In this document: positions 43,512 to 56,090 of the stretch, piece by piece
How positions within the stretch are numbered: the first letter of the stretch is position 1
Layout: the number at the start of each line of letters is the position of its first letter
From: an uncultured virus (IMG/VR IMGVR_UViG_3300006120_000020)
Lineage: Duplodnaviria; Heunggongvirae; Uroviricota; Caudoviricetes
IMG/VR virus record: IMGVR_UViG_3300006120_000020
Direction: 5' to 3' (one strand)
DNA: 64,000 bases
The notes under the pieces: model-generated
Databases searched by the model: none
What the model saw: only the letters and a program-made list of their open reading frames with translations
What the model was told of the DNA's origin: nothing
Translations under genes and position numbers: made by a program

Positions 43512-44288
43512 ATGGATCCGTTAACATTATTTGCTTTAGCCAATGGTGCGGTTGCAGCCGTCAAAAAAGGTTGCCAACTGTACAAGGATATAAAAAGTGC
43601 TGCTGGGGACGTTAAATCCGTACTCAAGGACCTTGACGACCAGTTTCACGCAAAACATCCACCAGATAAACCTGCAACCGTTGAACAACGTAACCAATAC
43701 ATTCAAGAAAAGAATCGTATTGTCGAGCTTAATAAACGTGATGGTGAAACCGCAAGCATTTATACCGAACTTGGCGAACATCTAGGCACATACTATGAAA
43801 ACTTCTATAAGTGCATGGCTGTGTTTGAGGAAGAAGAAAAACGTGCCAAGACTGAAGTTTATACTGGTGATACAAGTTTAGGCAAACGTGCTTTGCAAAG
43901 AGTTTTGATGCGTAAACAACTAGAACAAATGTCGGTTGATTTACGTGAGTTGATGGTATATCAATCACCACCAGAACTTGGTGCGTTGTATACTGAAGTT
44001 GAAGCTATGATGCAACAAATGGGTTCAGAACAAAAGGTTCTGATTTCCAAGAAAATGCAAAATGACCATATAGCTGCAAAAAGAAGAGCAAAAAGATTAC
44101 AACAACTTAGAATAGAAATTGCTTGGGGACTTGCTGCGTTAATAATTTCTTGTTCCGTTGGATTTATGATGGCGATGGTTGTTGCGGATAGAATTCAAAA
44201 ATATCCACATTTAGGTGACGGGTGGATACCAATGACAGCACAAGAAAGATCAGAGGCCGCCAAGCCAAAGATTTACACAGGACGATAA
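43512..44288 (+). CDS. hypothetical coiled-coil membrane protein
   Basis: MDPLTLFA.., C-terminal TM; ATAAATA late-type motif at ~43420. Confidence 0.75.
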   Translation: MDPLTLFALANGAVAAVKKGCQLYKDIKSAAGDVKSVLKDLDDQFHAKHPPDKPATVEQRNQYIQEKNRIVELNKRDGETASIYTELGEHLGTYYENFYKCMAVFEEEEKRAKTEVYTGDTSLGKRALQRVLMRKQLEQMSVDLRELMVYQSPPELGALYTEVEAMMQQMGSEQKVLISKKMQNDHIAAKRRAKRLQQLRIEIAWGLAALIISCSVGFMMAMVVADRIQKYPHLGDGWIPMTAQERSEAAKPKIYTGR

Positions 44289-44399
44289 TGTTTAAAACCA
44301 CTTTAAGATGGTTGCACGATAAAGGAATCTTGATTGGAACATTAATAGTAATATTAGCATCGGCATTTGTATCAATTACCGGAATATTACTTGTTGAAA

Positions 44400-44600
44400 T
44401 TACTGTTGATTGGTGTCGTACACACCTTTGATTTTAGCAAAAGCCTCATCTTCGGCTTGCTGGTCTTCAATTACGATTGGAGGGGGTATGTATGGCTCTT
44501 TTGGTTTCTTTTTACCAAAAATAGATTCGAATGAATTTGCAAATTCATCTTGTGAAACACTAAACGGTCTTGGTGCAGACCCTTTGCCGCCATCACTCAT
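44400..44600 (-). CDS. hypothetical protein
   Basis: MSDGGKGSAPRP..IFGKK. Confidence 0.65.
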   Translation of the reverse strand: MSDGGKGSAPRPFSVSQDEFANSFESIFGKKKPKEPYIPPPIVIEDQQAEDEAFAKIKGVYDTNQQ

Positions 44601-44841
44601 TGTAGTCCTCATATACAAAAGCAACATCATCTTCGGTGACGATATAGAAGTCTCCTGATTTGACTGCACGGCTCCAGTCAACTAAAATAACATCACCAAC
44701 GGAAACATTTTCTACTTCTGGACCAATAGCAATGATTCTTGCAAAATCTGGTCCTTCACTTCTTTGAAGAATAATACCACCTGCGGTTTTATTATCTGAT
44801 TCTACTTTTTCAACAATAACTTTATTACGCAATGGCTTCAT
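44593..44841 (-). CDS. groES: co-chaperonin GroES
   Basis: KPLRNKV..TAGGIIL..AIGP..VGD. Confidence 0.9.
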   Translation of the reverse strand: MKPLRNKVIVEKVESDNKTAGGIILQRSEGPDFARIIAIGPEVENVSVGDVILVDWSRAVKSGDFYIVTEDDVAFVYEDYNE

Positions 44842-44855
44842 ATTATCCTCAATAA

Positions 44856-44931
44856 TGGATGCAGCGGCTGGATTTGCACCAACGACCTCCGAGGGTATGA
44901 ACCTGGTGAGATGCTACTTCTCTACGCTGCT
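44856..44931 (-). tRNA. tRNA-Met(CAT), initiator-like, atypical T loop
   Basis: cloverleaf, 1:72 mismatch, T loop TGCAAAT, encoded CCA. Confidence 0.75.
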
Positions 44932-44937
44932 ATAAAA

Positions 44938-45007
44938 TGGAGCGGCAAGACTGATTCTCACAGCCGTCATACGGAGGGCATCCACATGATGTTATTACGT
45001 TTGCCGC
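44938..45007 (-). tRNA. D-arm-deficient tRNA-Gly(GCC)-like RNA
   Basis: GCGGCAA/TTGCCGC-T-CCA acceptor, long anticodon stem. Confidence 0.6.
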
Positions 45008-45014
45008 ATAAACT

Positions 45015-45088
45015 TGGAGCGGGATAAGAGAATCGAACTCTTAACTCTAACTTGGAAGGATAGCGTTTTGCCACTAAACTAATCCCGC
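45015..45088 (-). tRNA. tRNA-Gly(TCC)
   Basis: cloverleaf, CCA. Confidence 0.92.
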
Positions 45089-45157
45089 ATAATCATTTTG
45101 AAATACACTAAACAGTATACTTCAAAATGACGCCTACATTATATAGGCGCCATGCCG

Positions 45158-46597
45158 TTACAGGACTTTGTAACGGTCGTCCATGATGGTTTTAAGCATC
45201 ACGGATTCTGGAGTGAATGTTTCAATGTCACCCGCAAGCATTGGCTTAACCACTGCTGGAGAGAAACCAGAAACCATTGCAACACCAGACTTGTTGAATT
45301 GGACTGGAGCGTTACCATAAGCAGCGTTCAAGTTCCAGAATACCACTCGTGGCAATTCGTAACCTGCTTCTTCATACTTACGGGCAATCATTTCGATTGC
45401 GCTTTCGTCATACTTAACACCTTGGTCAAATTGCATGTCGGACAAAATCAACAATACTTTTGGCATGTCTTTTTGTGCAACATTACCCTTACGAGCAACT
45501 TCCAAAATCTTGTCAAATGCCTTGTGCAAGTTGGTGTTAGCAACTTCACCAGTGTTCATTTGGTCAATCTTTTGATTGATGTTACCCTTTAGGTTTACCA
45601 ATTGTGGACTTGCACTGAAGGTCAAGAAAGTATCCTTGAACGCACCAGTGTTCTTGTCAGCCAAATACAATCCCAGAGAGATTGCAATGTCCAAACAAGT
45701 CAATCCAGACTTTGAACCATATCCGCCAGCAGCGCAGGTCATAGAACCAGAGGAGTCAACCAATGGTAGAATGTCTGCATCACCAACGTAGTTTGGCAAA
45801 GCGTCCCATTGTGCTTGAATCAACTCCAATTCGGTCTTGTCAAATTTGCTACGGCCATATGACGAGATACGACCTTTCAACACATCGTAAGGGAAAACAG
45901 CCGAAGCGTTAACCTTTACTTCAACTGAACGTTCAGCCACTGGCTTCACCAATTCAGCAACGTATTGTGCATACAATGGAGTGTTACGGTTGAAAGCCTT
46001 CTTGTAACGTGAAGACGCTACAGATGGCACATGCGAGAAGTTAATGGAATCCCAATCCTTCGCACACATTTGAGTTTCAACAACGTTAGTCAATTCAACC
46101 AAAGACTTACGGTAGAACTTTGGTGACATTCCATAGAATGTACGGATTTCTGCCGCAATCTTACCTTTACGTGGAGTCCACTTTGCAGCAAGACCATTAC
46201 GAGCACGTAGTGCATCGCCTAGCATGGTATATGCAACGGACTTCATTACGTCAGTTTGGAAAACAAAAATGTCATCCCAACGACCCAATTCAGGAACTTT
46301 TGCCAACAGAGCCTTACAGGCTTCAACGTCAGTCTTTTCCAAGTAACGCAAGATAGAACGGAAAGTTTCACGTTCACCAGAACCACCACGAATGTCACGA
46401 ACCCATGCAGCAACACGCAATGCTAGATCACGGTTTTCTACAAAGGCTGCTACGAAAGCAGGAGTGATATCTTTACCACGTGATGCACCAATGTTATAGA
46501 ACAAGTCTACAACGGCATTAGCGGTGGACTTACGAGCCTTCATACCGTTTGTGGTACGGGCTTCTTGGTTTACAACGGCATTCACAAAAGTGTTCAT
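45158..46597 (-). CDS. DUF2828-family helical + vWA protein (Ro60/TROVE-like architecture)
   Basis: RDIRGGSGER, GRWDD, AKWTPR, VDSSGSM (MIDAS), SDMQFD, FWNL, SGFS; GAAGGAG RBS. Confidence 0.85.
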   Translation of the reverse strand: MNTFVNAVVNQEARTTNGMKARKSTANAVVDLFYNIGASRGKDITPAFVAAFVENRDLALRVAAWVRDIRGGSGERETFRSILRYLEKTDVEACKALLAKVPELGRWDDIFVFQTDVMKSVAYTMLGDALRARNGLAAKWTPRKGKIAAEIRTFYGMSPKFYRKSLVELTNVVETQMCAKDWDSINFSHVPSVASSRYKKAFNRNTPLYAQYVAELVKPVAERSVEVKVNASAVFPYDVLKGRISSYGRSKFDKTELELIQAQWDALPNYVGDADILPLVDSSGSMTCAAGGYGSKSGLTCLDIAISLGLYLADKNTGAFKDTFLTFSASPQLVNLKGNINQKIDQMNTGEVANTNLHKAFDKILEVARKGNVAQKDMPKVLLILSDMQFDQGVKYDESAIEMIARKYEEAGYELPRVVFWNLNAAYGNAPVQFNKSGVAMVSGFSPAVVKPMLAGDIETFTPESVMLKTIMDDRYKVL

Positions 46598-46615
46598 TAT
46601 TAACTCCTTCAAAAT

Positions 46616-46786
46616 AACTGGATGACCGAAAGCTGTAATTTATTTTCTGGTTGCCATGTGTATACTTTCACAACCCTATTCAATACTCGCTATTGAAATC
46701 GATTCCATATTCTATGGACACTATCACCTTTCGGTGCGAGGCGTGAGCATAAGCTCAAGTTATTTTTGTTTTGCTGAATTCATCCA
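46616..46786 (-). ncRNA. stem-CAGCAA RNA 1 (Y-RNA-like candidate), multi-hairpin insert
   Basis: TGGATGA-ATT-CAGCAA...TCATCCA-GTT. Confidence 0.7.
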
Positions 46787-46793
46787 AAAAAAC

Positions 46794-46890
46794 AACAGGT
46801 AAGTTTTCTACTTTTTGATTAAAGTGAGAAATCGAAACTCACAGACGGGCTCGGATATGATCCGAAAATTTTTGTTGCTGAACCTTACCT
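46794..46890 (-). ncRNA. stem-CAGCAA RNA 2 (Y-RNA-like candidate), T-arm-like insert
   Basis: AGGTAAG-GTT-CAGCAA...CTTACCT-GTT. Confidence 0.7.
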
Positions 46891-46924
46891 AAAAACTTTC
46901 TTCAATGTTTCATAACAAGATGTT

Positions 46925-46976
46925 ATTGTATCACAAAAAATTTGTAGAGTCAAGCGACATGTTGTAAATATGCCAC
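46925..46976 (-). promoter_or_regulatory. promoter for the ncRNA2-ncRNA1-DUF2828 unit
   Basis: TTGACT-17-TACAAT with TG; degenerate palindrome 46961-46976. Confidence 0.7.
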
Positions 46977-46980
46977 AGTT

Positions 46981-47054
46981 TGGTGCCCCCAAGAAGAATC
47001 GAACTCCTGTAAGCGGGTTACAAATCCGCGGTAATACCACTATACGATAAGGGC
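46981..47054 (-). tRNA. tRNA-Thr(TGT)
   Basis: cloverleaf, CCA. Confidence 0.92.
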
Positions 47055-47058
47055 TATT

Positions 47059-47132
47059 TGGAGCGGGATAAGAGAATCGAACTCTTAACTAAACCTTGGC
47101 AAGGTTTCGTTTGACCATTAAACTAATCCCGC
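47059..47132 (-). tRNA. tRNA-Gly(GCC)
   Basis: cloverleaf, CCA. Confidence 0.92.
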
Positions 47133-47143
47133 AATTTGTGTCT

Positions 47144-47172
47144 ATTATATATCATTTTCAAACCTTTGGCAA
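47144..47172 (-). promoter_or_regulatory. sigma70-like promoter inside tRNA array
   Basis: TTGCCA-17-TATAAT. Confidence 0.6.
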
Positions 47173-47173
47173 G

Positions 47174-47250
47174 TGGTGCGGGTAGACGGATTCGAACCGA
47201 CACTACACAGGGTTTAAGTCTGTTGACTCTACCAATTGGCCTATACCCGC
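47174..47250 (-). tRNA. tRNA-Leu(TAA), short variable loop
   Basis: cloverleaf, CCA. Confidence 0.88.
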
Positions 47251-47252
47251 AC

Positions 47253-47870
47253 TTACATTGTTGGTCCGTTTCCGTTTTGAAAACCAACTTGACCACCTTC
47301 TTCTTTGATTCGTTTGATAACATCCTCAAAAAGGATAGGTCTAAAGTCTGTTTGTTCAACGCAAACACAATGATACCTAGTGTCAATTTCCGGTTCTTCA
47401 ACCGTAAATGGACGTGGATCATATTTACTAACCTTTTCACGTTTTACCGTTTTCATCACACGACCTGTGTGGAGATGTCCATGAATGTTAGTACCAAAGC
47501 GACCAAGACTATCCGGATGAATAGGAATATGTGAAAGAATCATTCCGTTCATTACATGATAAGCACGAAGCTCACGGAAGTATTGTCTATATTCTTCATC
47601 ACGGAAAATATCGTGGTTACCACGGATAAGAACCTTGTCACCGTTAAGTCTACTCATAATTGAAAGTGCTTTACGGTTAATCACTACATCACCAAGGTGA
47701 TATACTTTGTCATTTGGTCGAACTGTTTCGTTCCAACGCTTTACCATTTCCTCATCCATTTCAGCAGGATCAGTCCATGGTCGAATTTTTTCACCTGTGT
47801 TTGAATCGGTGAAACGACATACACCGGCATGGCCAAAGTGTGTATCACTTACAAGAAATACTGCTGGCAT
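47253..47870 (-). CDS. calcineurin-like metallophosphoesterase
   Basis: SDTHFGH, LGD, GNHD, HGHLH. Confidence 0.92.
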   Translation of the reverse strand: MPAVFLVSDTHFGHAGVCRFTDSNTGEKIRPWTDPAEMDEEMVKRWNETVRPNDKVYHLGDVVINRKALSIMSRLNGDKVLIRGNHDIFRDEEYRQYFRELRAYHVMNGMILSHIPIHPDSLGRFGTNIHGHLHTGRVMKTVKREKVSKYDPRPFTVEEPEIDTRYHCVCVEQTDFRPILFEDVIKRIKEEGGQVGFQNGNGPTM

Positions 47871-47925
47871 AATGTTTCCTATTCTTTACAAAACCATCAT
47901 TTTGTACATAATGGTTTACACTTTT

Positions 47926-48000
47926 TGGTCCGGCGTGAGAGAATCGAACTCCCATCAGAAGGGTAGAAGCCTACTGTATTATCCATTATACTAACGCCAG
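47926..48000 (-). tRNA. tRNA-Arg(TCT)
   Basis: cloverleaf, CCA. Confidence 0.9.
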
Positions 48001-48006
48001 AATGTT

Positions 48007-48083
48007 TGGTGCCCCAGAGGAGACTCGAACTCCTAAAATTTGGTTTCTAAGACCAACACGTATACCAATTCCGTCACCGGGGC
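48007..48083 (-). tRNA. tRNA-Leu(TAG), short variable loop
   Basis: cloverleaf, CCA. Confidence 0.9.
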
Positions 48084-48254
48084 AAAAATAAATACTTTGT
48101 ATCATGACACTTAAATCCGCAGAACCACATCTTTGGGAATTTGCCAAAGCACCACCATACAAAGAATCTAAATTCTCTACAACAGTAAGAGAGTTTACAC
48201 CATCTTACGCTAAAAGGCAAGCCGCTGAATTTGTGCCTACCGAATTAAAACAAT

Positions 48255-48328
48255 TGGTGCTCCCACCAAGAATCAAACTTGGGTAACATCCGTACCAAGG
48301 ATGTGTAATGTCACTATACGATAAGAGC
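48255..48328 (-). tRNA. tRNA-Thr(GGT)
   Basis: cloverleaf, CCA, A19:U56 variant. Confidence 0.88.
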
Positions 48329-48335
48329 ATTATAG

Positions 48336-48484
48336 GTTTTTGAGCGACTGACTATCTTTCTCAAGGACTCATCAGGTTGTCTCGTATAGGAGAGTTTAAC
48401 GACCTTGTGTTGCTACTGGTGTGTCAGTCTCAAGATTAGGGACCTAGCGCACATGGGACTCAATCCAAACGTCTAGCTCAAAAA
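48336..48484 (-). ncRNA. stem-closed inter-tRNA RNA cassette F
   Basis: TTTTTGAGC...GCTCAAAAA closing stem plus internal GACTGAC/GTCAGTC. Confidence 0.45.
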
Positions 48485-48485
48485 T

Positions 48486-48560
48486 TGGTGGGTCATCAGA
48501 GAATCAAACTCTGTTCTACCGGTTAAGAGCCGGTTGCTTCATCACTTAAGCTTATAACCC
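48486..48560 (-). tRNA. tRNA-Lys(CTT)
   Basis: cloverleaf, CCA, A19:U56 variant. Confidence 0.88.
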
Positions 48561-48656
48561 ATATAGAAACATTCTTAATCTCCAGCATACTTGTGGTAGC
48601 TAACCCACTTTCAACCTTCTCCGATCCTGCGTCCAGTTTAGAATGTTTGTATATGG
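48559..48656 (-). ncRNA. stem-closed inter-tRNA RNA cassette A
   Basis: CCATATACAAACATTCT...AGAATGTTTCTATATGG. Confidence 0.5.
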
Positions 48657-48730
48657 TGCCCACCCTGAGATTCGAACTCAGACTACACAGTGTTTGAAAC
48701 TGCTTCCTCTACCAATTGGGATAGGAGGGC
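48654..48730 (-). tRNA. tRNA-Leu(CAA), short variable loop
   Basis: cloverleaf, CCA. Confidence 0.88.
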
Positions 48731-48734
48731 ATAT

Positions 48735-48835
48735 AACAGGATCGTTTTTTTGTAGAGGGAATTGAACCCCCAAGGTTTGATTATAAGTCAAATTGGTCAC
48801 CATGACCGTACGTTTTGGTTTGCTGAACCGATCCT
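48735..48835 (-). ncRNA. stem-CAGCAA RNA 3 with tRNA-like D/anticodon(TAT)/T arms (YrlA-like architecture)
   Basis: AGGATCG-GTT-CAGCAA..GGTCATGGTGACC..TTTGA-CTTATAA-TCAAA..GGGGG-TTCAATT-CCCTC..CGATCCT-GTT. Confidence 0.75.
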
Positions 48836-48841
48836 TAAACT

Positions 48842-48917
48842 TGGTGCAACCCACAGGAATCGAACCTGTTTCAACGGCTCTTCAGACCGCCGCTATGACC
48901 ACATCAGCTAGAGTTGC
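48842..48917 (-). tRNA. tRNA-Phe(GAA)
   Basis: cloverleaf, CCA. Confidence 0.92.
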
Positions 48918-48925
48918 ATATTGAA

Positions 48926-49102
48926 TTTGTAAGCATGGGACCTCCTTCATTTCCCAACATTTTACCAGTATTTTCTTTAAAGCGGCCGACTGGTTAGAGG
49001 TACGTAGTAACAGTTGATACTTGGAGCGGGCACCATATCCCGTGTGGACTTCTCCTCACATGGTTTTCGAGGCCATGCTTTCTCAACATCTACACTTACA
49101 AA
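48926..49102 (-). ncRNA. stem-closed inter-tRNA RNA cassette G
   Basis: TTTGTAAG...CTTACAAA closing stem, several internal hairpins. Confidence 0.45.
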
Positions 49103-49105
49103 ACT

Positions 49106-49180
49106 TGGTACCTCGTGACAGGATCGAACTGCCGACCTTCTCCGTGTAAAAGAGTTACTCTACCGCTGAGTTAACGAGGC
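49106..49180 (-). tRNA. tRNA-Val(TAC)
   Basis: cloverleaf, CCA. Confidence 0.92.
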
Positions 49181-49193
49181 ATAAAATTTACTT

Positions 49194-49268
49194 TGGGGAG
49201 TCATACGAGAATCGAACTCGTGATAACGGAATCACAACCCGTGGTTTTGCCACTAAACTAATGACTCC
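49194..49268 (-). tRNA. tRNA-His(GTG)
   Basis: cloverleaf, G-1:C73, CCA. Confidence 0.92.
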
Positions 49269-49298
49269 CCAAAGCAAACTTAATTGCTTTGAATTTTT

Positions 49299-49790
49299 TT
49301 ATACTGCTTCTTGTTCTGCTAGAATTCGCTTAAGACGGTCAGCACAGAATGATGCAGCAGGTGCGTTTGGCTTAACCATAGGTGTCATGTTACATGTACC
49401 TTTGATATAACCAATCGCTTGTTGAACAACACAAGAAGAACCATGGTTTTCATCCTTGTTCAAGTCCAAGTGAACTTCTACATGACGGTCTTCCAACACG
49501 TCCTGCATTTCTTGGAACAATTCTGATACCTTGTATACTTCGGTCATCAAACGCATTGCAGGTTTGCTTTTCTTATGGTCGTAGTCGATTTCACGATCCA
49601 CGAAACCAAAGATTTTACAACCATGACGGCCATCAATATGAACTACAACCGCTAGAGCGTAGTCAGCGTACCAAACGCCGTTAATTCTAACACGTTCGGA
49701 GTCTGCACCAAGATAAATCTTAGTGTCTTGACCTTGAGCCAAAATGAAGTCTTTTACTTCTTGTATGTTAAAATCTTTCATATCAATCAC
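49299..49790 (-). CDS. RNase H-like YkuK-family protein
   Basis: IYLGADS..RLMTEV..EVHLDLN..AASFCAD. Confidence 0.8.
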   Translation of the reverse strand: MIDMKDFNIQEVKDFILAQGQDTKIYLGADSERVRINGVWYADYALAVVVHIDGRHGCKIFGFVDREIDYDHKKSKPAMRLMTEVYKVSELFQEMQDVLEDRHVEVHLDLNKDENHGSSCVVQQAIGYIKGTCNMTPMVKPNAPAASFCADRLKRILAEQEAV

Positions 49791-49802
49791 CTTTCTTTTT
49801 TA

Positions 49803-49876
49803 TGGTATCCCGTGAGAGAATCGAACTCCCGCCAAGAGATTTGGAGTTTCTTGTGCTACCATTACACCAACGAGAT
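49803..49876 (-). tRNA. tRNA-Trp(CCA)
   Basis: cloverleaf, CCA. Confidence 0.9.
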
Positions 49877-49882
49877 ATAAAC

Positions 49883-49947
49883 AACAGGATAGAATTTTTA
49901 CGGTTTAGATTAAAAGTCTAATGTATAATTTTTGCTGTTACTATCCT
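49883..49947 (-). ncRNA. stem-CAGCAA RNA 4 with Lys(TTT)-type anticodon stem-loop
   Basis: AGGATAG-TAA-CAGCAA..TTAGA-CTTTTAA-TCTAA..CTATCCT-GTT. Confidence 0.7.
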
Positions 49948-49952
49948 AAATC

Positions 49953-50026
49953 TGGTACCCTGACCAAGAATCGAACTTGGGTCACACGATTATCAGTCGT
50001 GGGCTCTGCCATTGAGCTATCGGGGT
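49953..50026 (-). tRNA. tRNA-Ile(GAT)
   Basis: cloverleaf, CCA. Confidence 0.92.
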
Positions 50027-50031
50027 ATATA

Positions 50032-50108
50032 TGGTGCGCTCGGAGGGATTCGAACCCCCACCTCACGACTTCGTAGGACGGAACACTCTCCAGTTGTGCT
50101 ACGAGCGC
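50032..50108 (-). tRNA. tRNA-Arg(ACG)
   Basis: cloverleaf with weak anticodon stem, CCA. Confidence 0.88.
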
Positions 50109-50114
50109 ATTATT

Positions 50115-50190
50115 TGGTGGTTCAGGTGAGACTCAAACTCACGATAGGCACCGTATGAAGATGCTGCATTAGTCGCTTTGCTACTGAACC
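50115..50190 (-). tRNA. tRNA-Met(CAT), elongator-like
   Basis: cloverleaf, CCA, A19:U56 variant. Confidence 0.85.
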
Positions 50191-50317
50191 ATATAGAAAC
50201 ACTCTGCCGAGTCCTTGAATCTCATGGTGACCCTACTTCACGGCAGGTTCTTGCATTGGTCGACATTTGCAAGTTTACTGTTTATCCGCTGTAGTCACTC
50301 AGAATGTTTTTATATGG
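50189..50317 (-). ncRNA. stem-closed inter-tRNA RNA cassette B
   Basis: CCATATAAAAACATTCTG...CAGAGTGTTTCTATATGG. Confidence 0.5.
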
Positions 50318-50389
50318 TGGAGGCCGAGGAAATCGAATCCTTCTAGACATTCTCCTTGCAAGGGAGAACCGCAGCCCACTGCTGCCCCC
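50315..50389 (-). tRNA. tRNA-Ala(TGC), shortened D arm
   Basis: G3:U70, TGC anticodon, T arm, CCA. Confidence 0.8.
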
Positions 50390-50441
50390 ATATAACTGAT
50401 TACTTATCTCATTGTACGCCATCAGTCAAGGCGAAATCATT

Positions 50442-50518
<77 letters not shown>

Positions 50519-50526
50519 ATAAAATC

Positions 50527-50583
50527 AACAGGATACCTTTTCTTTTTTCCAATAAAAAGTTTTTTGCTTGCTGCAAGTATCCT
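50527..50583 (-). ncRNA. stem-CAGCAA RNA 5 (minimal)
   Basis: AGGATAC-TTG-CAGCAA...GTATCCT-GTT. Confidence 0.65.
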
Positions 50584-50588
50584 AAAAA

Positions 50589-50663
50589 TGGCTCCACAGG
50601 CAGGGATCGAACCTACGACCAAGTGATTAACAGTCACCTGCACTACCGCTGTGCTACTGTGGA
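50589..50663 (-). tRNA. tRNA-Asn(GTT)
   Basis: cloverleaf, CCA. Confidence 0.93.
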
Positions 50664-50670
50664 ATAAAAC

Positions 50671-50745
50671 TGGCGCCCCGTAGGAGAGTCGAACTCCTGT
50701 TCTCCGCTGGACAGGCGGGCATAATAGCCGTTATATTAACGGGGC
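50671..50745 (-). tRNA. tRNA-Asp(GTC)
   Basis: cloverleaf, CCA; C37. Confidence 0.88.
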
Positions 50746-50750
50746 GAATT

Positions 50751-50836
50751 TGGTGGAGACAGATGGATTCGAACCACCGTGCTTTTTAGGGGCCAGATTT
50801 ACAGTCTGGTGCAATCAACCGCTCTGCCATGTCTCC
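50751..50836 (-). tRNA. tRNA-Tyr(GTA)
   Basis: cloverleaf with long variable region, CCA. Confidence 0.92.
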
Positions 50837-50845
50837 ATAACTTTT

Positions 50846-50920
50846 TGGTAGGGGCACAGAGAATCGAACTCTGATTTGCTGGTTAAAAGCCAGCTACTTT
50901 AGCCGTTAAGTTATACCCCC
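50846..50920 (-). tRNA. tRNA-Lys(TTT)
   Basis: cloverleaf, CCA. Confidence 0.92.
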
Positions 50921-50921
50921 A

Positions 50922-51048
50922 TATCATTTGTTTTGCTGACGCACTATTTGCTACGCTCAACGGAATTGGTGGCCACACTACCGTTTATGTACGCAGTTAC
51001 TCGGGGTTGACGTTTCCCCCGTGGCTTACATCAGCAAAACAAATGATA
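50922..51048 (-). ncRNA. stem-closed RNA cassette E
   Basis: perfect 18-bp inverted repeat 50922-50939 / 51031-51048. Confidence 0.55.
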
Positions 51049-51257
51049 CCATACTAAAACACATTAGGGTGTCAATGCCTTTACCACCAGGGTCTTCTCA
51101 CGGTGCCGTCCACCGATAAGGCAATGTCCACATTACACTTCAACTTTATCCAGCACCATCGGAAGGCTTCATGTGATTATGGCCAGAGTCAGCACGGCTG
51201 CTGAAATTCTCTGCCAGTCACCTACTGGAGTTGGTAACCCAATGTGTTTTAGTATGG
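51049..51257 (-). ncRNA. stem-closed RNA cassette D
   Basis: perfect 17-bp inverted repeat 51049-51065 / 51241-51257. Confidence 0.55.
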
Positions 51258-51329
51258 TACACGATACGAGAATCGAACTCGTCTTTCCGCCTTGAAAGGG
51301 CAGCGTCCTAACCGATAGACGAATCGTGC
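51255..51329 (-). tRNA. tRNA-Glu(TTC)
   Basis: cloverleaf, CCA. Confidence 0.92.
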
Positions 51330-51331
51330 AT

Positions 51332-51415
51332 TTGACTCTACAAATTTTTAAAGAACAAGTAAGTATTGTATCAGAACATCACTTACTTGGCAACCAGTTG
51401 TTGTATGATTACAAC
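51332..51415 (-). promoter_or_regulatory. promoter + palindrome + boxA-like leader
   Basis: TTGCCA-17-TACAAT, GTTGTATGATTACAAC, TGTTCTTTAAAAA. Confidence 0.75.
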
Positions 51416-51452
51416 ATCTGTTTTTTGTTTCGATTTCTCAAAACATGAATGT

Positions 51453-51503
51453 ATTGTATCACAACCAGATAGTTTGTCAACCGTCTTGTTGTTTTTTTAC
51501 AAC
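51453..51503 (-). promoter_or_regulatory. tandem promoter with palindrome
   Basis: TTGACA-16-TACAAT, GTTGTTTTTTTACAAC. Confidence 0.7.
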
Positions 51504-51504
51504 T

Positions 51505-51580
51505 TGGAGTAGGCAACAGGAGTCGAACCTGCATATACTGAGTTTGCAATCCAGTCCCTAGCCATTCGGGTCATGCCTAC
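51505..51580 (-). tRNA. tRNA-Cys(GCA)
   Basis: cloverleaf, U73, CCA. Confidence 0.9.
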
Positions 51581-51813
51581 ACTAACTTTTTCCTTGAACT
51601 ACGGTGTGTTTCATCACGCCTCATAGTCCAATCGTATGTTCCACCATCCGGTAGAACTTTGTTTTCTACTGCATCAACACCAAACTTACCCACAATTTCC
51701 GTGGTTCCATCGGTGATGGTTACAAATTCGTTTGTTTCATTGGTTGCAAACTTCATTGCTTCATCCAATGTTTTGAAAAAACAATCACGATCACTCAAAT
51801 AAACTTTCCACAT
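51577..51813 (-). CDS. hypothetical protein
   Basis: EIVGKFGVDAV..LPDG.Y.W motif. Confidence 0.7.
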   Translation of the reverse strand: MWKVYLSDRDCFFKTLDEAMKFATNETNEFVTITDGTTEIVGKFGVDAVENKVLPDGGTYDWTMRRDETHRSSRKKLV

Positions 51814-51828
51814 AATCTCACTTTCATT

Positions 51829-51920
51829 TGGTACCTCGGGAAGGAATCGAACCTTCTCAAGAACGCTAATCTGGCGCTAAAAGTCTTATAAGGACTCTCT
51901 GACTACCAAGCCACCGAGGC
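51829..51920 (-). tRNA. atypical tRNA with TAT anticodon (Ile?), long variable arm
   Basis: 7-bp acceptor, 4-nt D loop, 7-bp anticodon stem, V arm, T arm, CCA. Confidence 0.75.
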
Positions 51921-51923
51921 ATT

Positions 51924-52015
51924 TGGTGGTGAGTGTGGGATTTGAACCCACGGTGCATATTTCTACACACAACAACTTAGCAGGTTGCCGATTTAAACCG
52001 CTCATCCAACTCACC
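51924..52015 (-). tRNA. tRNA-Ser(GCT)
   Basis: cloverleaf, long V arm, CCA. Confidence 0.92.
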
Positions 52016-52021
52016 GTTGTT

Positions 52022-52113
52022 TGGTGGAAGCGGTGAGATTCGAACTCACGGACCCATTCCTGAGCCGGCAGTTTTCAAGACTGCTGCCATAAACCAGACT
52101 CGACCACGCTTCC
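52022..52113 (-). tRNA. tRNA-Ser(TGA)
   Basis: cloverleaf, long V arm, CCA. Confidence 0.92.
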
Positions 52114-52192
52114 ATATAGAAACACACTAACGGACCGTAATAGACAATCCTCTCCACCGTAAAAGACAGCAGAGTAATGTGTTTTTATATGG
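52112..52192 (-). ncRNA. stem-closed inter-tRNA RNA cassette C
   Basis: CCATATAAAAACACATTA...TAGTGTGTTTCTATATGG. Confidence 0.5.
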
Positions 52193-52265
52193 CACCCCGT
52201 ATTGGATTCGAACCAATGATACCGATTTCAAAGACCGGTGCCTTAGACCACTAGGCGAACAGGGA
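52190..52265 (-). tRNA. tRNA-Gln(TTG)
   Basis: cloverleaf, CCA. Confidence 0.92.
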
Positions 52266-52273
52266 ACAATTTT

Positions 52274-52357
52274 TTGACTCTACAAATTTTTAAAGAACAT
52301 GTGTGTATTGTATCAGAACCGAGATTCTTGTCAATACACTTGTTGTTTCAAAACAAC
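52274..52357 (-). promoter_or_regulatory. promoter + palindrome + boxA-like leader at the head of the tRNA array
   Basis: TTGACA-16-TACAAT, GTTGTTTCAAAACAAC, TGTTCTTTAAAAA. Confidence 0.75.
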
Positions 52358-52396
52358 AAACAAAAAACCCTAGTAGATTTCTCTGACTAGGGTTTT
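52358..52396 (-). terminator. intrinsic terminator (attenuator 3:4 hairpin)
   Basis: AAAACCCTAGT/ACTAGGGTTTT followed by TTGTTT. Confidence 0.8.
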
Positions 52397-52423
52397 GCGT
52401 TTGGTATCTTTTTTAGAACTTTG

Positions 52424-52549
52424 TTATTCGTCCCATCCCTCTACACAAAACCCACCTTTTTGAATCGCCCATGAGCTATCACCACAATTATTTGTAACTG
52501 TGCGATACTCTGGTTGCAACGAAAAGGGTTTATGGGATATGAGAGACAC
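52424..52549 (-). CDS. putative attenuator leader peptide (41 aa, all 20 amino acids)
   Basis: GTG start; MSLISHKPFSLQPEYRTVTNNCGDSSWAIQKGGFCVEGWDE; lies between a promoter and a terminator. Confidence 0.65.
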   Translation of the reverse strand: MSLISHKPFSLQPEYRTVTNNCGDSSWAIQKGGFCVEGWDE

Positions 52550-52582
52550 GAATTTTCTTTCTAAAAATTTTTCAATGTTTGT

Positions 52583-52611
52583 ATTATATAGGAACTTTTG
52601 AGCCTTGGCAA
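52583..52611 (-). promoter_or_regulatory. promoter of the leader-peptide transcript
   Basis: TTGCCA-17-TATAAT; ATAAATA late-type motif just upstream (~52626). Confidence 0.65.
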
Positions 52612-52636
52612 CAACTATTTTGGTATATTTATTAAA

Positions 52637-53398
52637 TTATTTTCTTTCGATATCTTCTTCATCACATTCAAGACCATATTGTATCTCTACAATCTTGCAA
52701 GGATGATCGAATGGATTAGTTAGTTGGTGCCATGAACCTACAGGCACTTTGTATTCATCGTGTTTGTTTAACAACAGAGGAGGTAATGCATAACCACCAT
52801 TCATCATACTATTCACAACACAACAACCTTCACTAACGATCCAATACTCAGCACGATGTGAATGTCTTTGCATACTCAAAGATTTGCCAGGTTCTACAGT
52901 CAACTCTTTGACTTTCATTCCAGGTACTTCATGTAGAACACGATAGTAACCCCAAGCTCTGTCAGTCTTTGGTGCTTTCCATTCTTTTAGAATCCATGAA
53001 GAAGAATTTTTCTTATTCTCACCACCTACACCAAAAACAAATTCAAGGTTGTCATCTACAACATCCATTTCTGGAATATTTGATTGTGTTCTATCACCAC
53101 CGTTTGCAAAAATAATTCTTGCATCTGGCCAGATTTCTCTTACTTTTAAAATTGCAGCTCTGCTTGAATTGTCATCATCGTTATATGTGATAACTGCATC
53201 AAGGATTGAAAGGTGTTCTATGATTGTTTTGCGTTCATTCAAAGGCATAAACGCACGACCTTTTTTGCGTTCTAACCATGCATCACTATTCAAACCAACA
53301 ATCAATAAGTCGCCGAGTTTTGCGGCTTCTTTAAAATATTGAATGTGACCTGAATGTAGAGGATCAAATCCTCCTGTCACTAACACAATCTTCTGCAT
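52637..53398 (-). CDS. cytidylyltransferase + cupin (mannose-6-phosphate-isomerase-like) fusion
   Basis: GGFDPLHSGH, ANGGDR, SLSMQRH..EYW. Confidence 0.9.
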   Translation of the reverse strand: MQKIVLVTGGFDPLHSGHIQYFKEAAKLGDLLIVGLNSDAWLERKKGRAFMPLNERKTIIEHLSILDAVITYNDDDNSSRAAILKVREIWPDARIIFANGGDRTQSNIPEMDVVDDNLEFVFGVGGENKKNSSSWILKEWKAPKTDRAWGYYRVLHEVPGMKVKELTVEPGKSLSMQRHSHRAEYWIVSEGCCVVNSMMNGGYALPPLLLNKHDEYKVPVGSWHQLTNPFDHPCKIVEIQYGLECDEEDIERK

Positions 53399-53900
53399 AA
53401 CGTTTCCATCCTAAAGGTATCTTTTCAATTGGAGAGTCTGGATTGGCAATACCTTCAAAGACTTCCCACAATTTTTCTTTCACCACAAATTTGTTAAGTA
53501 GGCCTACTGCCATACCATAAGCTTCAATTTCCCACGGTTGACTGTAGTAATCTACATCATCAGATATATATTCACCTTTCCATCTGGTTAGGCGTTCGTT
53601 GGTTTCACTGTAAGCATACTGTTTGACATGCACCATTTCATGTGCAATGGTTTCCAAGATTTCTCTTGCACCGATATTTGGATTTACTTCTACCAAAAAT
53701 TCTCTGGCTTTACCAGAGTATGTGTATTCCTCAACAGATGCGTATCCACAAACCTCAAGTGATTTATCAAACTTGATGGTTAAGTGTATGTTTTCCAACA
53801 TATTTTTAGTCATTAGTTCTTCTGCAAAGAAGTGTGTTGCACGCTTCACAAAAGGACGAAATCTTTCTTTATCGGGACATTTTATGATACTTAGTTGCAT
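53364..53900 (-). CDS. putative metallopeptidase
   Basis: AHEMVHVKQ..PWEIEA. Confidence 0.8.
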   Translation of the reverse strand: MQLSIIKCPDKERFRPFVKRATHFFAEELMTKNMLENIHLTIKFDKSLEVCGYASVEEYTYSGKAREFLVEVNPNIGAREILETIAHEMVHVKQYAYSETNERLTRWKGEYISDDVDYYSQPWEIEAYGMAVGLLNKFVVKEKLWEVFEGIANPDSPIEKIPLGWKRYAEDCVSDRRI

Positions 53901-53931
53901 CAGTTTCTCCAAGGAGTTGTCCTCGACCTAT

Positions 53932-54366
53932 TTATCGAATCTGCTCTACCTTAACTCCGGCTTTTTCAAGGAATAAAATTCCACTATCATTCCGGTAAGC
54001 ATCACGATAGAACACGTTACTGATGCCACTCTGATATACCAACTTGGCACAGTCCAAACAAGGAGCGTGGGTAACGAACATAGTAGCGCCATCACCAGAT
54101 TCGGTCGATTTAGCCAACTTTGCAATCGCATTTGTTTCAGCATGTAAAACCTCAGCTTTAGTTACCAGTTCTGTTATTTTTGTTTGTTCATTAGTGAATT
54201 CAAACTCGCAATTATTGTTCCAACCGGATGGCATTCCGTTATAACCAATACTTATGATACGGTCATCTTTGACAATAATGGCACCAACATGAAGTCGTCT
54301 GGCAGAAGACAATCCTGCGAAAGTCTCTGCCACCCTCATATACGCATTACGAAACTTTTCTTTCAT
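53932..54366 (-). CDS. cd: dCMP deaminase
   Basis: HAE, PCLDC, GYNG. Confidence 0.93.
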   Translation of the reverse strand: MKEKFRNAYMRVAETFAGLSSARRLHVGAIIVKDDRIISIGYNGMPSGWNNNCEFEFTNEQTKITELVTKAEVLHAETNAIAKLAKSTESGDGATMFVTHAPCLDCAKLVYQSGISNVFYRDAYRNDSGILFLEKAGVKVEQIR

Positions 54367-54494
54367 TCCATCAACACATAATCATTTTTAGAAACACCAC
54401 ATTCTGGACAGTTGACTTCATCAGGAAGACTCAACCAGTCTGCTTCAGACAATTGGTGGCCACAAACTACACAAACGTAAATTCTTTCGCTCAT
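54363..54494 (-). CDS. rubredoxin (43 aa)
   Basis: YVCVVCGH..LPDEVNCPECG; not in ORF track. Confidence 0.85.
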   Translation of the reverse strand: MSERIYVCVVCGHQLSEADWLSLPDEVNCPECGVSKNDYVLME

Positions 54495-54940
54495 TTCATT
54501 TCTCCTAGTTTAACTTGATATGCTTCTGCATGACGTTTTTCAACTTTAGCCAATGCAGCAAAACGTTTCTCAGCCATCTCTAGAACTTTCTTGAATTGTT
54601 CCGCATGTTGTTGAGACTCGTCAACCTGTTCTTGGAATTCTGTTACTGCACGATGACCTTCTTGTTGTGCATCGGTAACAAAACCAGGATACATGGTTGT
54701 GAATTCATGTGTCTCACCTTCAATGGCAAGTTCTAAGCATTTCTTAGTTGTTGGTTTACCAATTAGTAACTCTAAATGACCCCATGCATGGAGAATTTCT
54801 TGGTCAGCAGTGTGTTCGAAGTGTTTTGCAACTTCTTCAAAGCCTTCTGCACGAGCCAACTTAGCAAAATAACGGTACTTGATGTGAGCCATTGATTCGC
54901 CTGCCAATGCACTCTCAAGATTTTTCATTGTAACTGACAT
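54491..54940 (-). CDS. rubrerythrin
   Basis: AGES.A..Y, EILHA, GETHE..MYP, EQQH, EKRH. Confidence 0.9.
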   Translation of the reverse strand: MSVTMKNLESALAGESMAHIKYRYFAKLARAEGFEEVAKHFEHTADQEILHAWGHLELLIGKPTTKKCLELAIEGETHEFTTMYPGFVTDAQQEGHRAVTEFQEQVDESQQHAEQFKKVLEMAEKRFAALAKVEKRHAEAYQVKLGEMK

Positions 54941-55010
54941 ATTTTTCCTTTATAAAGTTTAGCAATCAAATAATTACTTATGATAGTATATCACTATTTT
55001 CATCAAAAGT

Positions 55011-55232
55011 CTAATTGTTATTTTTAATCGTGGTGATAGTGTCGTTACTTTGGGTAATTTTTGATTCTTCCGGTACCGATGGTGGGTACTCTAAGAACTT
55101 AAACATCTGAATTGGCTTCCAGTATCGGTGTATGATGTTGTTAATTACTACAACAGTAGATACAAAAATAATAAGAGATAACCCAGTCAAAATACTACCT
55201 GCAAGCACTTCTGCTGCTACATCCATATCCAT
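55011..55232 (-). CDS. membrane hypothetical protein
   Basis: GAAGGAG RBS, one TM. Confidence 0.6.
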   Translation of the reverse strand: MDMDVAAEVLAGSILTGLSLIIFVSTVVVINNIIHRYWKPIQMFKFLEYPPSVPEESKITQSNDTITTIKNNN

Positions 55233-55250
55233 AATATACTCCTTCAAAAA

Positions 55251-55317
<67 letters not shown>

Positions 55318-55327
<10 letters not shown>

Positions 55328-55905
55328 AATAATGATTTAAAAATTTGTTGTTGTAAAGATACCGCCTTATCAACAAACGCAAGATTATCAAAGTACTTAT
55401 CATCAAAGTAGGATTGAATTTTACCTTTTGTTGCCTGAATAGTGGCTTCTTTTTCACCTTGTGCAATCGTTACAACAGTCATGCCATTTTTCTTGGCGAT
55501 GTGTTGCATTACCTTATTATCTGATAGGCATTGAGTGAATAGAGTCTTTGCGCCTTTAGACATTGCCCATGTTGCACCACGAATGAATAACTCTTGGCCT
55601 AGACCTTGGCCACGAAATTCTGGTGAAACGGTGAATCCCATTTCAGCAGAATAATCACCATCTTTGCTTAGTGGATAAAAAGTAACATGAACAGAGCCAA
55701 CAACCCCAGCGTTTTCGTGTTCAACAATAAACCACATGTTCTTGAAACCAAATTCATCAAAGGCCTTATCTAAGTAGTCAATTATATTAGCATCGGATGC
55801 AGCATAACCAAACCTCAGATAACGGTCATGACCAACAATATCTTCTAGAAAATGGTCGTATAACCGGTTCGCATCTTCTTCGGTTGCAATTTTACGTGGA
55901 ATCAT
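55318..55905 (-). CDS. GNAT acetyltransferase
   Basis: RYLRFG, VSPEFRGQGLG, N..MQHIA. Confidence 0.85.
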
Positions 55906-56090
55906 TTCACTCTTTCCAAAGAATCTTTACGCATCCAATGTGATACTTGTGTCAGTTCTTGTGAAGGTTCACGTTTACAGACAGACAAAAACTCCACACC
56001 ATCAATTTCTTGGGTTGGCCAGTGTTTGAATGTGTACACAATTTCTCTTGAAGAAACCACTCGCATTTTAATAAAGTCTAATTTTTTCAT
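55902..56090 (-). CDS. hypothetical protein
   Basis: EIDGVEF..MRKDSLE. Confidence 0.65.
   Translation of the reverse strand: MKKLDFIKMRVVSSREIVYTFKHWPTQEIDGVEFLSVCKREPSQELTQVSHWMRKDSLERVK

Follow-up and report, generated by a model that had tools for sequence, protein, structure and literature searches.

A viral leader reading frame with all 20 amino acids upstream of a tRNA array: a candidate ribosome-mediated transcription attenuator

The window analysed here is a stretch of 64,000 nucleotides from the 166.6-kb record of an uncultured virus (IMG/VR IMGVR_UViG_3300006120_000020), which encodes a RegA protein whose closest cultured counterparts belong to T4-like cyanophages (~70% identity). 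Entirely on the minus strand, just upstream of an array of tRNA genes, lies a compact leader unit in which a promoter (P1) is followed by a 41-codon open reading frame (ORF) with a GTG start, an intrinsic terminator, a second promoter (P2) and the first tRNA gene of the array (Table 1). An initial annotation made from the sequence had described this order of parts, three RNA segments capable of alternative pairing and a peptide containing all 20 amino acids, and had proposed that the unit is an attenuator sensing the translation of every amino acid. We found these parts, and the peptide itself, as described, together with a weak ribosome-binding site (AGAAAG) and downstream promoters ending at 52307, 51453 and 51365; what had been overlooked is that the whole ORF forms one hairpin of 62 bp. 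Here we present evidence that the all-20 composition and the alternative helices are conserved among uncultured relatives, and we argue that the unit is probably a ribosome-mediated leader-peptide transcription attenuator whose leader surveys all the amino acids and controls read-through into the tRNA array.

Table 1. Parts of the leader unit and of the adjoining start of the tRNA array (window positions).
Feature	Position	Strand	Remark
P1, sigma-70-type promoter TTGCCA-17-TATAAT	52611..52583	minus	11/12 matches
Shine-Dalgarno (SD)-like AGAAAG, weak, 7 nt 5' of GTG	52557..52562	minus	sequence
Leader ORF, GTG start, 41 codons plus stop, all-20 peptide	52549..52424	minus	ORF kept in 78/78
ORF-spanning hairpin, 62 bp, 9 G-U pairs	52567..52410	minus	RNAfold
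Segment 1, AUAUCCC / CAUAAACCC, with CATAAACCC at 52534-52526; 5'-arm partner of segment 2	52526..52540	minus	
GAGTATCGCAC, codons E-Y-R-T, apical stem	52500..52510	minus	
Segment 2, GGGTTTTGTGT (RNA GGGUUUUGUGU)	52453-52443	minus	ground state: paired inside ORF hairpin; alternative partner: segment 3
Segment 3, ACGCAAAACCC, terminator 5' arm and antiterminator partner of segment 2	52400-52390	minus	
3' untranslated stretch, ~20 nt, between ORF and terminator		minus	
Intrinsic terminator stem-loop	~52403-52357	minus	GGG 52370-52368, T-run (T6) 52367-52362
Inverted repeat GTTGTTT-TGA-AACAAC (TGTTG..CAACA)	52342-52357	minus	immediately 5' of P2 -35
P2, near-consensus promoter TTGACA-16-(TG)TACAAT, between terminator and tRNA	52334..52307	minus	
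boxA-like TGTTCTTTAAAAATTTG in P2 leader	52299-52283	minus	exact second copy 51357-51341
tRNA-Gln(UUG), first array gene	52265-52190	minus	array extends to 44856

Relatives of the unit were sought by several routes. Among cultured phages, blastn with the unit gave no match and tblastn with the peptide gave only two chance matches (E 6-7). A cytidylyltransferase-cupin gene used as an anchor returned 22 loci, 21 of which carry no tRNAs; the single syntenic locus (L001) was uninformative because it is 100% identical over the unit. With RegA, encoded 4 kb upstream of the unit, as the anchor we obtained 80 loci, in 12 of which the unit is present (nhmmer and inspection) and always stands just 5' of the first array tRNA. 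The RegA-anchored relatives provided a set of 13 members that is independent of the conserved-block motif used subsequently as a pattern. This pattern, built from two conserved blocks, was scanned against IMG/VR and hit more than 119 stretches among the matches listed, the scope to which all counts of relatives given below apply; together with the window and four pattern-fitting RegA-anchored loci these amounted to 124 sequences and 90 unique cores. Twelve cores (L105, L125, L144, L147, L148, L149, L150, L166, L167, L201, L207 and L216) were dropped as chance matches in unrelated long G+C-rich ORFs or for want of a start codon, leaving 78 unique DNA versions and 63 unique peptides from uncultured relatives. 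The pattern forces E-Y-R-T, D and W, which was allowed for in the composition statistics. A profile search of 1.84 billion representative proteins yielded 15 hits at E <= 0.001, 12 of which represent this small ORF, frequently annotated with an overextended N-terminus, and none of the 15 lies inside another protein family. The leader peptide matched no Pfam or PHROG family. Likewise, an Rfam cmscan of 44000-56000 at E <= 1 placed nothing inside 52356-52620, neither a T-box (RF00230) nor a leader family (such as RF00513, the Trp leader, and RF00514, the His leader). Sub-threshold Rfam hits in one relative, L026 (trpB motif, PyrR and small RNAs), were taken as chance.

The 41-residue peptide of the window contains all 20 amino acids, with the 19 other than Met falling inside its first 28 codons. 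The codon counts put forward initially also hold, in that the first 18 codons are all distinct, as are 27 of the first 29 and, with 31 of the 40 non-start codons, 32 of the 41. For one 41-mer with the phage proteome composition the probability of containing all 20 is 0.9%, and among the 277 six-frame ORFs of 31-44 amino acids in the window the leader ORF is the only one that does. Because this ORF was picked after the fact, however, the case rests on the relatives. We found that 48 of the 63 unique peptides contain 20 amino acids, 13 contain 19, and one each contains 18 and 17, whereas under a null model in which M, E, Y, R, T, D and W were fixed, with all other residues sampled at phage proteome frequencies, only 0.6 of 63 would be expected to be complete (the probability being 0.15% at 31 residues and 3.9% at 44). 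Complete members occur in all six peptide clusters. Translation of the same DNA in frames +1 and +2 gave no complete peptide (0/63), with means of 15.5 and 16.1 distinct residues; one reverse-complement frame was complete in 8/63 (mean 17.7), a raised diversity that we put down to hairpin symmetry. In the pattern-independent set, counted by eye, nine of the 13 members have 20 amino acids and four have 19, and two divergent library hits without the exact motif, P0009 (31 residues) and P0013 (39 residues), still have all 20, again by eye. Moreover, the residues that occur singly (H, Q, C, F and V) differ in position between the two main subfamilies, His standing at position 6 or 31 and Gln at position 12 or 27 depending on the subfamily, which argues that composition is conserved and not just sequence. 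These comparisons show that the all-20 content is a conserved trait of the family. In keeping with the codon diversity that the initial annotation had pointed out, codon variety exceeded that obtained by synonymous resampling in 63/63 peptides (mean z +1.6), an excess to which RNA pairing may contribute.

The leader ORF also carries the marks of a translated gene. Its frame is kept open in 78/78 DNA versions, compared with 6/78 for frame +1 and 0/78 for frame +2, and in-frame changes account for ORF lengths of between 31 and 44 codons. Start signals fall into two types. SD-like motifs (GGAG, GGAAG or GAAAG), correctly spaced from the start codon, precede the ORF in 48 versions (GTG in 31, TTG in nine and ATG in eight), while in 28 others the start follows the -10 box after six nucleotides (-10 box, N6, ATG), an arrangement that implies a leaderless mRNA; two versions show neither type. 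If leaderless initiation depends on a 5' AUG, the exclusive use of ATG at leaderless-type starts (28/28) is expected from translation and not from a non-coding RNA. Taken together, the data support a leader ORF that behaves as a translated gene, translation itself being something that we infer. It is against these observations that a non-coding small RNA, consisting of a long hairpin and a terminator with the ORF as a by-product of hairpin symmetry, has to be judged. Such an RNA would fit the strong strand-specific structure described below and the raised diversity of the reverse-complement frame, but it accounts neither for one frame staying open while the others do not, nor for properly spaced SD-like motifs and uniformly ATG leaderless starts, nor for a full amino-acid set in 48/63 peptides that disappears in the shifted frames. 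With ORF, start signals and all-20 content conserved, we gave up a pure non-coding hairpin RNA, and we regard this explanation as very improbable.

At the RNA level, the window transcript folds to -74.1 kcal/mol (z = -6.85; 0/200 shuffles as good, RNAfold), and since the complementary strand attains no better than -57.7 we assign the structure to the transcribed strand. The entire ORF is one long hairpin in which the region of the start codon pairs with that of the stop codon, and a long hairpin is likewise predicted in 13/13 relatives (z from -2.2 to -6.5). A simple terminator scan of the window did not list the leader terminator, the stem of which has a bulge. Within this architecture segment 2 has two partners, segment 1 in the ORF hairpin (1:2) and segment 3, the 5' arm of the terminator stem (3:4). 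The three segments lie where they had been located, and the 2:3 helix is real in the window (11 bp, including one G-U pair); the complement of segment 2 reaches the terminator 5' arm plus bases 5' of it.

Across 15 sequence clusters, cognate 2:3 duplexes averaged -18.0 kcal/mol compared with -13.6 for non-cognate combinations, a difference attained in 0/5000 permutations, and the cognate duplex was better than the median non-cognate one in 14 of the 15 clusters. The 1:2 pairing gave a weaker signal (-17.8 against -16.0; 68/5000 permutations), and 1:3 control duplexes showed no cognate signal in the same 15-cluster permutation test. Column-wise co-variation of 2:3 on the MAFFT alignment was weak, with four double-change pairs against 3.2 in shuffles; because the subfamilies bulge on opposite strands, which offsets them by one column, we used per-sequence duplex energies instead. 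Nonetheless, in alignment A3 (MAFFT) 78.8% of cells in the 2:3 helix are paired, compared with 33-68% for slid partners. The ground-state structure is paired in 64% of cells (35-47% when slid) and contains 238 double-change cells against 155 +/- 10 in shuffles, and the terminator helix is paired in 80.6% of cells with eight pairs changed on both sides in a compensatory manner. The terminator is part of the minimum free energy structure of 65 of 70 distinct transcripts, and in 64 of the 70 at least four segment-2 bases lie in the ORF hairpin together with at least four segment-3 bases in the terminator stem. In addition, the GGGUU..GUG core of segment 2 is read in different frames in the two subfamilies (G-F-C-V in one, R-V-S-G in the other), which argues that it is kept as RNA and not as peptide. 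Hence, the 1:2, 2:3 and 3:4 pairings exist, overlap and co-vary. The idea that related phages would keep the ORF, its diversity and the 2:3 co-variation has thus been borne out.

The unit is tightly linked to tRNA genes. The next gene is a tRNA in 73/78 versions (tRNA-Gln in 72), three of the remaining five ending at contig ends and two having no called tRNA; in the window tRNA-Gln is followed by 27 more tRNA calls. In three relatives (L141, L177 and L209) tRNA-Gln begins 10 nt past the terminator with no promoter between them, and two more (L136 and L026) also have no P2. Because no promoter intervenes, the tRNAs of these five lineage representatives are reachable only through the terminator.

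We propose the following mechanism, in which the direction of the switch, the size of its effect and its physiological trigger are the conditional parts. P1 would start a transcript of ~190 nt. With no ribosome on the leader, or with a ribosome that has read to the stop codon, the ORF would fold upon itself (1:2) and sequester segment 2, so that the terminator (3:4) could form and transcription would stop short of the tRNA genes. A lead ribosome held on the 5' arm or at the apex, for example because some charged tRNA is in short supply, would instead occupy the 5' arm and leave segment 2 free to pair with the emerging segment 3. This 2:3 helix would block the terminator stem, and RNA polymerase would continue through P2 and the boxA-like leader into tRNA-Gln and the array. 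The output would be tRNA transcription in addition to that from the basal promoters, whenever elongation slows down, no matter at which kind of codon. A tie to tRNA-cleaving host defences, which the initial annotation had suggested, we purely infer.

We examined this scheme by folding transcripts cut before segment 4 under ribosome-footprint constraints in an equilibrium model. In the window 0/16 arm bases are paired upstream when no ribosome is present, and with a footprint on any of codons 1-16 except 11 segment 3 of the truncated transcript is paired to ORF nt 97-106, the alternative helix that had been predicted. A clean switch did not emerge across the family, and we take the equilibrium folds as support for the existence of the alternative helix and not as a means of deciding the direction of the switch.

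Several observations weigh against ribosome-stall attenuation as proposed. Without a ribosome, just 12/68 family transcripts leave the whole terminator arm unpaired, some arm bases being already paired upstream in the other 56. In the window the SD-like motif is weak, and the start codon lies hidden within the hairpin stem. The ORF contains no codon runs, and with one codon per amino acid it would be a blunt sensor reacting mainly to severe tRNA loss. Furthermore, the original proposal is only partly upheld: ORF, all-20 trait and helices are conserved in relatives, but that a stall at almost any codon ahead of segment 2 would be registered is a conjecture, the full amino-acid set being present there in only 7/59 peptides (a mean of 17.9 of 19.7). 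Segment 2 itself or its immediate neighbourhood often contains V, H, G, A and W. Finally, a ribosome on the last two codons of the window ORF (40-41) also yields 2:3, and several relatives show the same at their last one to three codons. These last findings would suit a different, in effect opposite, logic, in which completed translation places a ribosome at or near the stop codon, opens the lower stem and favours 2:3 and read-through, such that the leader checks that translation works and that all 20 amino acids can be decoded; the set is, after all, complete only over the whole ORF in 52/59 peptides. However, in 27/59 peptides a terminating ribosome would sit over half or more of segment 2 and so block 2:3, which is why we favour stall-induced read-through over the reverse. 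Completion-induced read-through would also amount to a positive feedback on tRNA supply without obvious use, and the hairpin should re-zip behind the moving ribosome before segment 3 is made. We therefore consider it unlikely.

A further difficulty for ribosome-mediated attenuation concerns the apical stem. GAGTATCGCAC is identical, third codon positions included, in 11 of the 13 relatives found without that motif, and the attenuator model does not account for the invariance of GAGUAUCGCAC at synonymous sites, given that the stem could co-vary. This invariance, which a plain hairpin does not need, could instead point to a switch operated by a factor, that is, a protein or an RNA such as a tRNA that binds the apical motif and flips the helices in place of the ribosome, the ORF being secondary. 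Yet the apical motif is buried in a stem, the Rfam scan at E <= 1 detected no T-box or other match in the unit, and a factor would leave the conserved ORF, its start signals and its all-20 content unexplained; we rate such a switch as distinctly unlikely.

The promoters downstream of the terminator weigh against the proposed gating in another way. In the window and in 70/78 relatives, terminator and tRNA are separated by a near-consensus promoter of the P2 type with a boxA-like leader, and further promoters lie inside the array. Because P2 and the internal promoters supply tRNA transcription regardless, read-through only adds to it there. One could thus regard P1 and the terminator as the bounds of a complete unit, with P2 coming next: a stand-alone small gene for a peptide of 31-44 residues, or a dual-function RNA, whose hairpin serves mRNA stability or translational control and whose position next to the tRNAs, transcribed from P2 and internal promoters, is mere synteny. 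A functional peptide would fit the invariant E-Y-R-T and W and the nearly invariant G33, and leader peptides can act in trans, peTrpL being an example (PMC7298713; PMC7968998). But peptide function does not predict that all 20 amino acids are retained while the singletons move, nor does it explain why segment 2 co-varies with the terminator arm, including bases 5' of the terminator stem. The five representatives in which tRNAs follow the terminator directly, with no promoter, speak against mere synteny, and the peptide belongs to no Pfam or PHROG family and is seldom encountered, with just 15 hits in 1.84 billion representative proteins, none of which sits in a different protein setting. In our judgement a stand-alone gene is rather unlikely.

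The proposed attenuator can be compared with those of trpL, hisL, pheL and leuL and with the multivalent thrL and ilvL, the features of trpL, hisL and ilvL being taken here as general background. Regulatory codons in such leaders typically come as runs, which raises sensitivity. Like these leaders, the phage unit has a short leader ORF, mutually exclusive 1:2, 2:3 and 3:4 helices and a terminator with a U-run, and, similar to trpL, the stop codon is placed such that a terminating ribosome would mask segment 2 in about half of the family. Genes without a promoter of their own follow the terminator, as in the trpL type, in the five representatives named above and not in the window or the 70/78 versions with P2. 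In contrast to the trpL type, there is no run of regulatory codons, each amino acid occurring at least once instead; the downstream genes encode tRNAs and not biosynthetic enzymes; the unit is phage-borne; the ORF of 31-44 codons is itself a hairpin of ~60 bp; a second promoter usually follows the terminator; and no Rfam leader family matches. This differs from classical attenuators, in which the regulatory codons are cognate to the operon's own amino acid (PMC1183508). On balance, we favour the view that the unit works like a trpL-type attenuator without being an ordinary member of that class.

Other systems share single aspects of the unit. The antibiotic-sensing leader ORFs of bmrB-bmrCD, vmlR and mef/mel likewise report general translation trouble by ribosome-mediated attenuation; in contrast to the phage unit, their targets are resistance pumps or ABCF factors and their signals are drugs, and the accessible portions of the corresponding papers describe none with a complete amino-acid composition (PMC4191407; PMC9226507; PMC4335068). 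T-box riboswitches also sense tRNA charging through a choice between terminator and antiterminator, but they bind one tRNA directly and are untranslated, and the phage unit has no T-box match, specifier loop or T-box sequence. The control region of bacterial rrn operons resembles the unit in having tandem strong promoters, P1 and P2, before stable-RNA genes and a putative boxA leader close to the rrnB stretch. Between their P1 and P2, rrn operons are not known to carry a translated ORF or an attenuator. In the portions of the literature available outside subscription journals, we found neither an all-amino-acid leader nor attenuation ahead of phage tRNA genes described.

Large phage tRNA arrays are now regarded as a way for translation to continue while host tRNAs are being degraded or cleaved by the host itself, and to our knowledge the way in which phages regulate these arrays is largely unknown. 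If the proposed mechanism is true, the unit, whose one evident design rule is that every amino acid occurs, would embody a new sensing principle in which the whole decoding capacity is reported rather than one metabolite. More tentatively, and with the chances in our view somewhat below even, such leaders could constitute a general phage 'translation gauge', in which an ORF with all 20 amino acids and a codon variety beyond synonymous sampling lets a stall at any codon flip the antiterminator and raise transcription of the phage's near-complete tRNA set, for instance when a host anticodon nuclease removes one tRNA species or upon starvation. In that case no earlier attenuator would be known that is tuned to decoding as a whole instead of to one amino acid, and no earlier feedback control of a viral tRNA array would have been described. 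The unit would also offer synthetic biology a compact natural part, of ~200 nt, for reading out stalling at any codon, and it is a clear example of a gene in which what has been conserved is the amino-acid composition and not the sequence.

The promoters around the unit have features of their own. A promoter-like site is also found at the position of P1 in the relatives inspected. In six relatives (L109, L124, L163, L183, L108 and L037) no TTGACA-type -35 stands upstream of the leader, and a TATATATAG / TATATAC-like box is found instead; the P1 of those subfamilies may thus belong to a different promoter class and hence to a different infection stage. The two exact copies of TGTTCTTTAAAAATTTG both lie on the minus strand just 3' of a strong promoter, within the tRNA array or at its head, and continue as GTAGAGTCAAA. 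By our own count, TGTTCTTTAAAAATTTG matches the rrnB boxA stretch tgctctttaacaatttatca (PMC2176067) at 14/17 positions, which suggests that rrn-style antitermination of the tRNA transcripts might take place via the boxA-like leader. The 3' untranslated stretch at 52411-52420 (minus) reads GUUCUAAAAA, which is like the boxA-like motif minus one U, and it pairs with UUUUUAGAA 5' of the SD-like motif, closing the ORF hairpin. The inverted repeat upstream of P2 recurs at ~51400-51420, so that it stands 5' of the -35 in both boxA-bearing promoters as part of a repeated promoter cassette; in the relatives inspected it is conserved, with loop and stem bases changed, and its possible roles include those of an operator, an insulating hairpin and a processing site.

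Additional tRNA-like sequences accompany the array. At ~50318-50392 (minus) a sequence called by neither ARAGORN nor Rfam has a tRNA-like acceptor (G1-C72..G3-U70), a CTTGCAA loop (UGC, Ala) and an encoded CCA; apart from this Ala candidate, the 28-29 tRNAs of the phage cover 19 amino acids and lack Ala. The tRNA at 48489-48560 (minus) is called by Rfam (53 bits) and not by ARAGORN, and its loop CUCUUAA reads Lys(CUU). In two of the relatives without P2, a class-II tRNA-like gene with a long variable arm follows the terminator, within a few bases in L026 (L026:11693-11780) and after ~17 nt in L136; ARAGORN does not call it, its score with the tRNA-Sec model is 35.5 bits and thus below the threshold of 47, and its anticodon loop seems to comprise 9 nt. 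Upstream of the unit, the gene at 52637-53398 (minus) encodes a cytidylyltransferase-like domain fused to a cupin of the mannose-6-phosphate-isomerase type, relatives of which (52-68% identity) occur in many viral contigs with no adjacent tRNAs.

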